Below, in pieces: positions 45,335-48,060 of a DNA stretch of 64,000 bases; positions within the stretch are counted from its first letter, which is position 1; every line of letters begins with the position of its first letter. Source of the stretch: Phycisphaerales bacterium. GTDB taxonomy: Bacteria; Planctomycetota; Phycisphaerae; WQYP01. Made by a program: the position numbers and the translations under genes. The notes below the pieces were generated by a model. It saw only the letters and a program-made list of their open reading frames with translations. It ran no database searches and was not told where the DNA came from. The stretch spans positions 9,381 through 73,380 of the forward strand of contig DAIDJN010000005.1 of assembly GCA_027451365.1 (NCBI GenBank), written 5' to 3'.

Positions 45335-46546
45335 TCAACTTGCCCCAGTTGCCAGCCCCGGCATGACCGGTATCGCCGCCCGGCTTTCCGCCGGGTTGTA
45401 CCGTTCACCGAGGCTGTAATGCACCGGAACTCCGTCCTTGGTATGCAGCAAATAATAGCCGCCGCGGTCCACGAGTTCTTCATAAGGTCCAAGCACGCAC
45501 TTACCCATGGGCGTCGGAATAGTGAGCAGGGGCACACGTGTGCCGGGCGCGGAAGCTAAAGCGCGCAATATAAATTGGCTTTCCGGCAATGTCAGCCGAT
45601 GCTGGGGCAGAGTGCCATCAGGGAACGGATGAATAAGATAGTACGGTTTGACGGTTACCCGCCCGCTGTCCAACCGATCATACATATCGGTAATAATGGC
45701 AGCATCGTTGTTAATCCCGCGAAACAGCGGATGCTGTGTCATCATGAGAGGTGGACGCGCCGGTGTCAGCCGGACAAGAATATCCAAGACTTCAAGCAGC
45801 ACAGGCGTTACTTCTCGCGGATGCACGACATGCAGAATATAGGAATTCGGGGCAAGGTCGGCAATGGCCTTTTGCAGTGCGGTGTTGCGCATCAGCCGGT
45901 TCGGATACCAGACCGGCTCCCGCGTGTGAATACAAACAGTAATGCGTCTGGAAACACGCTGATTCAGCCGTTTGACGCGGTGGGCCAGATGGGTAAGCAC
46001 GCCAGCACCCACTGCCAGCGGGTCACCGCCGCTTAGGATAATTTCACGCAGCTCGGCCAGCCGGGGTGATGTTTCCGCCTGGTCAAACATGGCGTCAATT
46101 TCGGCATGGGTAATGGTGCCCGGCGTCACATCGCGATTCTTCAGATAGCAGTAGCGGCACAGCCCACTGCAAAAGTCGGTGACGCGCAACAGGCTTTCGT
46201 ATCGGTATTTTTGAATCCATCGCGGATGGTCTACGACTTTTTCGGCAAGTTGAAACGAATCCCAGCGTTCAGTGCCTGTGTCATACAATTCGCCGCTGTT
46301 TGGCAGCACCAGATCCCACAGCGGATCGTCCGGCAGATTGGTGAGAATATTTTCCACATAAAACCGCGGCAGACGGAAGGTGAATGTGCGGGCAACCTCT
46401 TCCATTTCAGCCAAGCGCGAGGCGCTGATACCGGGCAATGCGGCCGACAATGCGGCGACCGAGGTCAACAGGTCCGGGTTGTCATTGGAAGGATGATGCT
46501 GTGCGATTTCCACAATATCAAGCGATTTATTCTGTAAGACAGTCAT
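45335..46546 (-). CDS. KamA-family radical-SAM/PLP aminomutase, divergent
   Basis: DDPL, CSGLCRYC (CxxxCxxC), IILSGGDPL, HTREPV, HVVHPRE, RGINND, KPYYL and PLP-Lys region PMGK. Confidence 0.85.
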   Translation of the reverse strand: MTVLQNKSLDIVEIAQHHPSNDNPDLLTSVAALSAALPGISASRLAEMEEVARTFTFRLPRFYVENILTNLPDDPLWDLVLPNSGELYDTGTERWDSFQLAEKVVDHPRWIQKYRYESLLRVTDFCSGLCRYCYLKNRDVTPGTITHAEIDAMFDQAETSPRLAELREIILSGGDPLAVGAGVLTHLAHRVKRLNQRVSRRITVCIHTREPVWYPNRLMRNTALQKAIADLAPNSYILHVVHPREVTPVLLEVLDILVRLTPARPPLMMTQHPLFRGINNDAAIITDMYDRLDSGRVTVKPYYLIHPFPDGTLPQHRLTLPESQFILRALASAPGTRVPLLTIPTPMGKCVLGPYEELVDRGGYYLLHTKDGVPVHYSLGERYNPAESRAAIPVMPGLATGAS

Positions 46547-46639: not shown

Positions 46640-46668
46640 TTGACTTTTCGTCCATTTTCAGACATAGT
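46640..46668 (+). promoter_or_regulatory. Sigma70-type promoter for the aroF leader
   Basis: TTGACT (46640-46645), 17 bp spacer, CATAGT (46663-46668). The predicted +1 falls at or near the leader ATG (46676). Confidence 0.6.
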
Positions 46669-46675
46669 CCAAATT

Positions 46676-46771
46676 ATGAATATAGCGCCATTCAATTTCA
46701 TTCAACTGTCCGGCCCGGACTTCTGGTTTGGCGGCATGTATTTTACCACCGGCTGGCGTCGGCGGACTTGA
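46676..46771 (+). CDS. Aromatic amino acid attenuator leader peptide (31 aa)
   Basis: MNIAPFNFIQLSGPDFWFGGMYFTTGWRRRT contains 5 Phe, 2 Trp and 1 Tyr, and overlaps the antiterminator arm. Confidence 0.82.
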   Translation: MNIAPFNFIQLSGPDFWFGGMYFTTGWRRRT

Positions 46772-46802
46772 GATTGTTATCCAGAGTTTCTTTATCATCC
46801 TC

Positions 46803-46834
46803 AAGCCCGCCGAAAGACGGGCTTTATTTGTTTT
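46803..46834 (+). terminator. Attenuator intrinsic terminator
   Basis: AAGCCCG-CCGAAAGA-CGGGCTT followed by TATTTGTTTT. Its 5' arm can alternatively pair with 46759-46772. Confidence 0.85.
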
Positions 46835-46850
46835 ACGACAGGATTTCATC

Positions 46851-46979
46851 ATGCAATCGACTATCGCCATGTATATCCAGCAAAGCTTGCAGTTGGCGGA
46901 CGACGCCCTGCGGCTGGCGCATCAGATAGAACAACAGATCGACCCCATTCGGCCCCGGGAGAGGCTTTGGCGATTCTGA
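46851..46979 (+). CDS. Putative 42-aa small protein between the attenuator and aroF
   Basis: AGGA RBS; MQSTIAMYIQQSLQLADDALRLAHQIEQQIDPIRPRERLWRF. Confidence 0.4.
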   Translation: MQSTIAMYIQQSLQLADDALRLAHQIEQQIDPIRPRERLWRF

Positions 46980-47037: not shown

Positions 47038-48060
47038 ATGATTATTGTAATGGAACAGGGTGCGACAGACGGACAGGTGCAGCATGTCGTGGATCTGGTG
47101 CGGGAAATGGGTCTCCGTGAACATGTCATTGTCGGCACGGAACGGACCGTAGTCGCCGTGCTCGGAGACGACCGTGCCAAGGACAAAGACAAACTGGAAA
47201 ACGCCGGTGGTGTGGAAAAGGTCATGCCGGTTCTGGCACCCTATAAAATGGCCTCACGTGAAGTAAAAAAAGAACGTTCGGTTGTGCCGCTGGGCGGTCG
47301 GCTCGGTGGAACGGCCGGTGGAAAAAAACTGGCGCTAATCGCTGGTCCCTGTTCCGTGGAAGACCGTGTGAAACTGCTGGAAATTGCACACATGGTGAAA
47401 GATGCGGGCGCCACCGGCCTGCGGGGTGGTGCATTCAAACCGCGTACCAGCCCGTACGCCTTTCAGGGTATGGGAGAAAAAGGTCTGGAAATTTTGGCCG
47501 AAGCCCGCGAACAGACCGGTCTGGCGGTGGTAACTGAAATCATGTCCATAGATCAGGTGGAACTGGTCTGCCGATATGCGGACGTGCTGCAGGTTGGCGC
47601 AAGAAACATGCAAAACTTCAATCTGCTATGGGCGGTCGGCGAACAGCGCAAACCGGTGTTGCTGAAACGCGGCATTGCGGCCACGCTGGAGGAATTCATG
47701 CTGGCGGCGGAATACATCATGTCCCGCGGAAACAGCCAGGTTATTTTATGCGAACGGGGCATTCGCACATTCGAAACGCATTGCCGCAATACGCTTCCTC
47801 TGGCCACCGTGCCGGAGGTTCATCGCATCAGCCACCTGCCGATTCTGGTCGATCCATCCCAGGGAACCGGACACGCACATCTGGTGCCGGATATGTGCAA
47901 GGCGGCGATCGCCTGCGGGGCGGACGGCCTTATTATTGAATGCCACAACGACCCTGAACACGCGCTTACAGATGGCGCTCAATCCATTACACCCGCCACA
48001 TTAAAGGCAATGTATGGCACGCTGAAAAAGCTGGCCGCCGCGGTGGACCGCGAAATTTAA
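47038..48060 (+). CDS. aroF: 3-deoxy-7-phosphoheptulonate (DAHP) synthase, class I-beta with N-terminal regulatory domain
   Basis: MIIVM N-terminal domain; IAGPCSVE, RGGAFKPRTSPYAFQG, QVGARNMQNF, LCERGIRTFE and ALTDGAQS. Confidence 0.97.
   Translation: MIIVMEQGATDGQVQHVVDLVREMGLREHVIVGTERTVVAVLGDDRAKDKDKLENAGGVEKVMPVLAPYKMASREVKKERSVVPLGGRLGGTAGGKKLALIAGPCSVEDRVKLLEIAHMVKDAGATGLRGGAFKPRTSPYAFQGMGEKGLEILAEAREQTGLAVVTEIMSIDQVELVCRYADVLQVGARNMQNFNLLWAVGEQRKPVLLKRGIAATLEEFMLAAEYIMSRGNSQVILCERGIRTFETHCRNTLPLATVPEVHRISHLPILVDPSQGTGHAHLVPDMCKAAIACGADGLIIECHNDPEHALTDGAQSITPATLKAMYGTLKKLAAAVDREI

Follow-up and report, generated by a model that had tools for sequence, protein, structure and literature searches.

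A predicted leader-peptide attenuator rich in Phe, Trp and Tyr codons ahead of a DAHP synthase gene in Phycisphaerae

[quoted passage not shown] The whole stretch of DNA analysed, referred to here as the window, comprises 64,000 nucleotides (assembly GCA_027451365.1, contig DAIDJN010000005.1, positions 9,381 to 73,380 of the forward strand). The module extends from position 46640 to 46834 of the window, and all the features described below are on its forward (+) strand unless indicated. An initial annotation, made from the letters of the window alone, had proposed attenuation of the trpL/pheL type for this DAHP synthase. This proposal is supported by a layout shared by 27 of 27 orthologous loci, by the position of the antiterminator arm at the leader stop codon in 24 of them, and by co-variation of that arm with the terminator.

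Leader elements and their conservation

The module starts with a sigma-70-type promoter (46640..46668), made up of a TTGACT -35 box (46640-46645), a 17-nt spacer and a CATAGT -10 box (46663-46668). The ATG of a leader open reading frame (ORF) of 31 codons plus TGA (46676..46771) lies 7 nt past the -10 box and is not preceded by a Shine-Dalgarno (SD) sequence; the transcription start site is a predicted one, and the leader mRNA is predicted to be leaderless or to have a 1-nt leader. The product, MNIAPFNFIQLSGPDFWFGGMYFTTGWRRRT, gave no match in Pfam or NCBIfam. Eight of its 31 codons are aromatic (F6, F8, F16, W17, F18, Y22, F23 and W27), five of them within eight codons. Promoter, ATG without ribosome-binding site and aromatic codons are all located where they had first been placed. 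The predicted sensor codons (46721..46744) are F16 W17 F18 (46721-46729) and Y22 F23 (46739-46744). They do not include W27, whose codon (46754-46756) is 3 nt ahead of the antiterminator arm. In relatives, the arm itself is made up of the W-R codons that close the leader (TGGCGG...), so W27 is unlikely to be a productive sensor codon and is more likely a by-product of the RNA arm.

Each fold in the window was compared with 200 shuffles. In the antiterminator, region 2 (5' arm, 46759..46772), which includes the leader stop codon TGA at 46769-46771, pairs with region 3 (3' arm, 46800..46813) at 13/14 positions, with an energy of -23.4 kcal/mol (z -4.14) that was reached by 0/200 shuffles. Region 3 overlaps the 5' arm of an intrinsic terminator (46803..46834), formed by a 7-bp stem with 5 G-C pairs at 46803-46824 and the tail TATTTGTTTT; the hairpin has -11.7 kcal/mol (z -3.13), and 1/200 shuffles was as stable. 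Both structures are therefore present as originally described, and the minimum free energy (MFE) structure of the full leader RNA is the antiterminator form.

In the genome to which the window belongs (4.06 Mb, 88 contigs), 165 of 50,536 small ORFs contain at least five aromatic residues in eight codons. A TTGAC-type promoter combined with a short ORF and a terminator occurs 12 times, and the aromatic run is found in this one alone. A lax genome scan for runs of any amino acid, which SD-led leaders may escape, returned 178 noisy matches, none of them with the promoter pattern. Since the promoter scan by itself was not above chance (3 sites versus 1.7 expected from shuffles), the case rests on conservation in relatives, and it is this conservation that settles the module as more than a chance arrangement.

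The comparison included 27 distinct loci, corresponding to the window, 23 of 24 genomes from the same family, 2/2 genomes from a second one and an additional GenBank metagenome-assembled genome (MAG). At the remaining genome of the family (L012) the contig ends inside the module, and only the terminator and ORF2, a micro-ORF located between the terminator and aroF, are visible. The GenBank titles of near-identical loci correspond to Planctomycetota/Phycisphaerae MAGs. The same order of parts was found at all 27 loci, that is, promoter, SD-less aromatic ORF, antiterminator, and terminator hairpin with T tail. The promoter takes the form of a TTGAC(T/A) -35 box and an nAnnnT -10 box, and the leader begins 3-11 nt past the latter with ATG, or GTG in two cases, without SD. 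In an alignment of 26 sequences TTGAC is invariant (26/26) and conservation reaches at least 90% at two positions of the -10 box, with a mean column identity of 44%. Leader ORFs have 24-43 codons, with runs such as FWF..YF, YWRYFFFT, FWFFYFTG and FYWY, and the number of aromatic residues in eight codons is at least five at 21 loci, four at three and three at another three. The claim that one leader holds codons for the three aromatic amino acids is upheld by the presence of F, W and Y in the run at 24/27 loci (W in 26, Y in 25 and F in all 27). The aromatic run of L069, a second copy, is weaker. The ratio of nonsynonymous to synonymous substitutions (dN/dS) of the leader between close pairs is around 1 (1.04, 0.93 and 0.88, rough values given the short sequences), which indicates that conservation is confined to the aromatic run and the RNA arms and does not extend to the peptide as such.

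For each locus, the best partner of the terminator 5' arm was sought in the RNA between the start of the leader and the terminator. At 24/27 loci this partner begins between -11 and +12 nt relative to the point where the leader stop codon starts. The terminators belong to five sequence types (GCCCGCC, GCCTTGnnCC, GCCTGC, CCTCAGGAC and CCTTGAGCTC), and the partner arm changes along with them. Co-variation was counted on an alignment of 14 loci (A4), which are related, so that the counts are not independent events. In this alignment the main helix of the antiterminator has 84.6% of its cells paired and three pairs altered on both sides, and the whole structure of 14 pairs is 77.0% paired, versus 34-51% when slid by 1-3 columns, with a covariation score of 0.182 that was reached by 13/500 shuffles. 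The terminator helix is 90.9% paired, versus 22-55% when slid in the same way, with two pairs altered on both sides and a score of 0.111 reached by 3/500 shuffles. Column 79 is common to both helices: the antiterminator pair 22-79 goes from G-C to A-U in L017 and L035, and the terminator pair 79-92 from C-G to U-A in L015 and L017. The change is complete on both sides in L017 only, L015 keeping a G-U in the antiterminator and L035 a U-G in the terminator. These changes, with partners retained, indicate that both alternative pairings have been kept.

The median distance from the end of the run's last aromatic codon to the antiterminator arm is 15 nt (range -1 to 24, 24 loci). This geometry fits an arrangement in which a ribosome at the stop codon would cover region 2 and one stalled in the run would leave it free.

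Proposed mechanism, alternatives and known systems

According to the mechanism we propose, transcription would begin at the ATG or 1 nt before it (46675/46676), and a ribosome would load on the 5' end of the RNA. With ample Phe-, Trp- and Tyr-tRNA, it would reach the TGA at 46769-46771 and cover the 5' arm of the antiterminator; once this arm is covered, the hairpin at 46803-46824, followed by its T tail, would form and transcription would end before ORF2 and aroF. A ribosome stalled at F16-W17-F18 or Y22-F23 would have its front edge some 15 nt short of the arm, which, being free, would pair with 46800-46813; the terminator would then be blocked and the polymerase would read on.

Several observations weigh against this reading. 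The terminator of the window is modest, with an interrupted T tail, and the antiterminator is far more stable, which means that the default without efficient translation of the leader would be read-through; T tails are also poor at L007 and L008. One genus (L015, L017, L035, L070 and L071) has a weak run, with 3-4 aromatic residues in eight codons. At 3/27 loci (L010, L013 and L018) the best partner is 27-45 nt upstream of the stop codon, and in L010 and L013 the ORF extends beyond it. Duplex energy alone beats mononucleotide shuffles (at most 2/200) at only 9/27 loci, so the argument is the constant position of the partner. A genome-wide check of long ORFs for leaderless starts showed no clear enrichment. 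Finally, the classical 1:2 hairpin is unsupported, since local folds of this type beat shuffles at only 1/27 loci. The initial annotation had included such a hairpin, and a weak one formed by CCACCGGC and GTCGGCGG (46746..46765, pairing 46746-46753 with 46758-46765) does appear in the MFE structure of a truncated RNA (46676-46775), but its energy (-10.4 kcal/mol, z -1.46) was equalled by 17/200 shuffles and is not above chance. In relatives, at least five bases of region 2 can pair with the 32 nt upstream at 17/27 loci. The 1:2 hairpin is not required by the proposed model.

Some of these points would suit a hairpin switch set by a metabolite, an uncharged tRNA or a TRAP-like RNA-binding protein, with the aromatic ORF being incidental or untranslated. 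The ORF has no SD sequence and the genome gives no clear signal of leaderless starts, while the much higher stability of the antiterminator implies that some factor must block its formation. We nevertheless regard such a switch as highly improbable. Searches of Rfam at gathering score on 20 related loci returned only tRNAs and no leader family, riboswitch or T-box, and on the window, with E values of up to 10, only chance-level matches, Trp_leader (RF00513) among them with 15 bits versus a cut-off of 41 (E 5.1). Despite nucleotide divergence, the frame, its aromatic run and the place of the stop codon in or at the arm have been kept, which translation alone explains, and the spacing between run and arm fits the footprint of a ribosome.

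The terminator and aroF are some 200 nt apart, a stretch that includes ORF2, and this also counts against attenuation, as a promoter not of the sigma-70 type is possible there. No second consensus sigma-70 promoter was found on the + strand between 46000 and 48500, in a scan that covered the sigma-70 consensus only. With aroF expressed from a separate downstream promoter, the leader ORF might encode a functional aromatic-rich peptide, or the region might be a small RNA with its own terminator. This is the least probable of the explanations considered here: the dN/dS values of the leader do not point to a conserved peptide, every instance of the element precedes a DAHP synthase orthologue and the genome yielded a single one, and a conserved antiterminator would be pointless in a plain terminator.

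A third alternative accepts ribosome-read attenuation and restricts the sensing to a subset of the three, such as Phe alone or Phe with Trp, the other codons having a minor role. The leader aroR of Corynebacterium glutamicum, with Phe-Tyr-Phe codons, precedes aroF, whose transcription increases under Phe limitation, with no effect of Tyr supply, according to the sections available of PMC11802643 (summarising Neshat et al., 2014) and PMC4046766 (Mentz et al., 2013). A Tyr codon without a Tyr effect in that system means that codon content is no proof of sensing all three amino acids, and this has to be set against the broader reading of the window. In addition, Phe codons dominate most of the runs, with 1-4 F, one W (none in L017) and 0-2 Y. 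On the other side, the joint presence of F, W and Y in 24 of the 27 runs, with W in all but one, argues for selection on each of them. We consider sensing of only part of the set to be possible, although on balance doubtful.

As far as the accessible parts of these two sources show, the aroR-aroF attenuator of C. glutamicum is the closest published case. It shares with the module described here a short leader ORF with adjacent aromatic codons located before a DAHP synthase gene, and stalling raises transcription there; the comparison is one of functional design. It differs in that aroR has no Trp codon and belongs to an actinobacterium, whereas here the run includes F, W and Y, the host is a member of Planctomycetota and, in this family, an additional conserved micro-ORF precedes aroF. 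For the absence of a ribosome-binding site there is a parallel in the ilvBNC leader peptide of C. glutamicum, made without such a site according to the title of Morbach et al. (2000) as cited in PMC4046766; that attenuator is also read from an mRNA of this kind, in a different pathway (branched-chain amino acids) and phylum.

The design is also like that of trpL-trpEDCBA and pheL-pheA of Escherichia coli (Rfam Trp_leader RF00513 and Phe_leader), in which regulatory codons are clustered in the leader, antiterminator and terminator exclude each other, and the supply of charged tRNA exerts the control. Those leaders respond to one amino acid at a terminal branch, whereas here codons of three are found at the common entry step. 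The leaders of E. coli have an SD sequence and a functional 1:2 hairpin; the module in the window has no SD, its 1:2 hairpin is unsupported and the Rfam leader models do not match it. For aroF of E. coli, an old proposal of an attenuator sensing Tyr-tRNA is listed in the part of PMC2659441 that is available.

Our literature searches found no description of an aromatic leader-peptide attenuator in Planctomycetota: for this group, the accessible text of PMC4833913 gives leader-gene distances only, and that of PMC1262725 has no mention of aroF or DAHP. The initial annotation knew of no such system in Planctomycetota; in view of the C. glutamicum precedent of an aromatic leader before a DAHP synthase gene, the module is a new example of a known device rather than a new kind. 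It would add Planctomycetota to the groups with leader-peptide attenuation, the switch being backed by comparative proof, and suggests that a single sensor at the common entry step can, by its codon content, read three aromatic end-products. The consistent location of SD-less leaders 3-11 nt past the -10 box leads to the prediction that leaderless translation works in these bacteria. For annotators, the module offers a signature of a regulatory element that gene callers and Rfam miss.

ORF2 and the DAHP synthase genes

The terminator is upstream of the DAHP synthase gene, though not directly, as a conserved SD-led ORF intervenes. This is ORF2 (46851..46979), of 42 codons, with the SD sequence AGGA (46840-46843) 7 nt before its ATG. 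Counterparts of 35-52 codons are present at 22/27 loci, and 21 of these have an SD-like motif; the version in L003 is shorter, and ORF2 is absent from L024-L027. In a profile search it appeared in exactly one copy per genome, always beside DAHP synthase, in 22/24 genomes of the family and in that of the window, and the same profile gave only one match in other families, at chance level (E 0.0097). Residues M1, I26 and W40 do not vary, and conservation is at least 90% at L22 and A23. The overall pattern is A..AL.LA..I followed by [L/R]-W-R located 0-15 codons, usually 1-3, before the stop codon, which is TGA in 19/22 cases; in the window the Trp is 3 codons before the stop.

Values of dN/dS for ORF2 between close pairs were 0.27, 0.36, 0.16 and 0.85, rough figures because the sequences are short, and 0.01-0.10 for DAHP synthase; unlike the leader, ORF2 thus appears to be under purifying selection. 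Its product was modelled with AlphaFold2 as one helix (residues 2-30) with a low-confidence tail and a mean predicted local distance difference test (pLDDT) score of 81.8, so that a single long amphipathic helix with a floppy tail carrying the invariant Trp is predicted. Database homologues are 15 proteins of 32-52 residues, hypothetical or unnamed; there was nothing in Pfam or NCBIfam and no usable match in the ESM Atlas.

Three possible roles of this region were examined and rejected. An RNA switch between ORF2 and aroF was discarded after 22 spacer folds gave z values of -2.0 to +1.5 with no common structure. The composition of the spacer after ORF2 is too variable (C 0.16-0.56, G 0.05-0.39) for a C-rich, G-poor Rho-loading site, and a second aromatic attenuator is not compatible with one conserved aromatic codon and no terminator behind it. 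From its sequence features, ORF2 resembles a gene for a translated micro-protein and not a second leader. A speculative and rather unlikely option is that ORF2 is a second layer of control, gained by the attenuator in the family of the window alone, either as a Trp-responsive nascent peptide tuning aroF expression from the read-through transcript or as a trans-acting micro-protein modulating the feedback-regulated DAHP synthase. If true, either role would make it an undescribed partner of an amino-acid attenuator, and ORF2 is in any case a small family-specific puzzle attached to a well-understood switch.

The gene that follows (47038..48060) encodes a DAHP synthase of type I-beta that carries a ferredoxin-like regulatory domain at its N terminus (PF00793, 1.5e-72; PF18152, 3e-22; NF006421, 4.4e-139), and orthologues were found in 41/41 related genomes. 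On the other side of the module, the neighbouring gene (45335-46546) is on the opposite strand, which leaves a divergent intergenic gap. The genome has a second DAHP synthase paralogue (G000:C74:8684-9700, L068), 46% identical, and no aromatic leader was found in the 800 nt upstream of it; the attenuator would thus govern only one of the two entry enzymes of this genome. At another locus, L022 (G004:C2:403570-407568), the DAHP synthase orthologue contains one in-frame TGA, with leader, terminator and ORF2 looking intact. This could be a sequencing error, a pseudogene or a case of recoding.

Distribution beyond close relatives

A draw of 151 genomes across the class Phycisphaerae provided 80 further upstream regions, which were evaluated for the presence of an aromatic ORF (at least four aromatic residues in eight codons) and a terminator hairpin. 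The module was found in families f6 (14/15 regions), f7 (5/6), f11 (2/2), f15 (4/4) and f3 (4/9), and its presence was also seen in G030 (f7) and G035 (f11). It was not found in f2 (0/15), f13 (0/11), f18 (0/5), f4, f10 and f16 (0/2 each), or f8, f14, f17, f19 and f20 (0/1 each). Two extra members (g6) of the window's family fall below the threshold of four in eight, as do L017 and L035 (three in eight; L015 has four). Conservation upstream of aroF in Phycisphaerae, which had been suggested as a check of the attenuator, therefore extends to six families and was not seen in the 11 others sampled.

The loci L028-L030 lack a leader, with a serS-like gene abutting aroF. In G025 (f2) there is an SD-less aromatic ORF with no clear terminator. 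At this locus (L063, G025:C68:218100-218950), where the SD-less leader contains ..AWRFFYYPFM, inspection by eye revealed three tandem units of around 45 nt in the last 200 nt or so before aroF, two of them near-identical and one degenerate, each with a GGGCGAAAG...CGCCC hairpin.

Outside the class, the cultured Anatilimnocola sp. NA78 (Planctomycetia; L053, NZ_CP187419.1) has an SD-less ORF (..GYWRFYFTG..) followed by a terminator, and this carrier makes the module testable at the bench. Downstream of leader and terminator in L053, an ATG about 160 nt upstream opens a stop-free frame into the start of DAHP synthase, as judged by eye; it may represent an extension of the N terminus or the in-frame fusion of an upstream ORF. 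The same design, with a normal ribosome-binding site, was found outside Planctomycetota at L049 (JAKPCH010000014.1), in a MAG labelled Deltaproteobacteria: an SD-led ORF of 28 codons with the run W-F-G-Y-F-Y-F-Y (seven aromatic residues in eight) and a strong terminator precede a DAHP synthase gene whose product is 50% identical.

Two minor observations can be added. At L062 (G035:C1:163900-164750), a second SD-led ORF of 23 codons with W-Y-F was noticed by eye after the first leader and terminator, around 190-120 nt before aroF, in the place where the family of the window has ORF2, and it may be a further sensor in series. In the genome of the window and outside the window itself, the scan for runs also brought up near-identical small frames (..NGKIELPPIC.WKQNLWNLWNLW..) at G000 C19:2984-3780, C83:751-1231 and C84:20877-20975, which point to a repeated element carrying a short internal tandem repeat.

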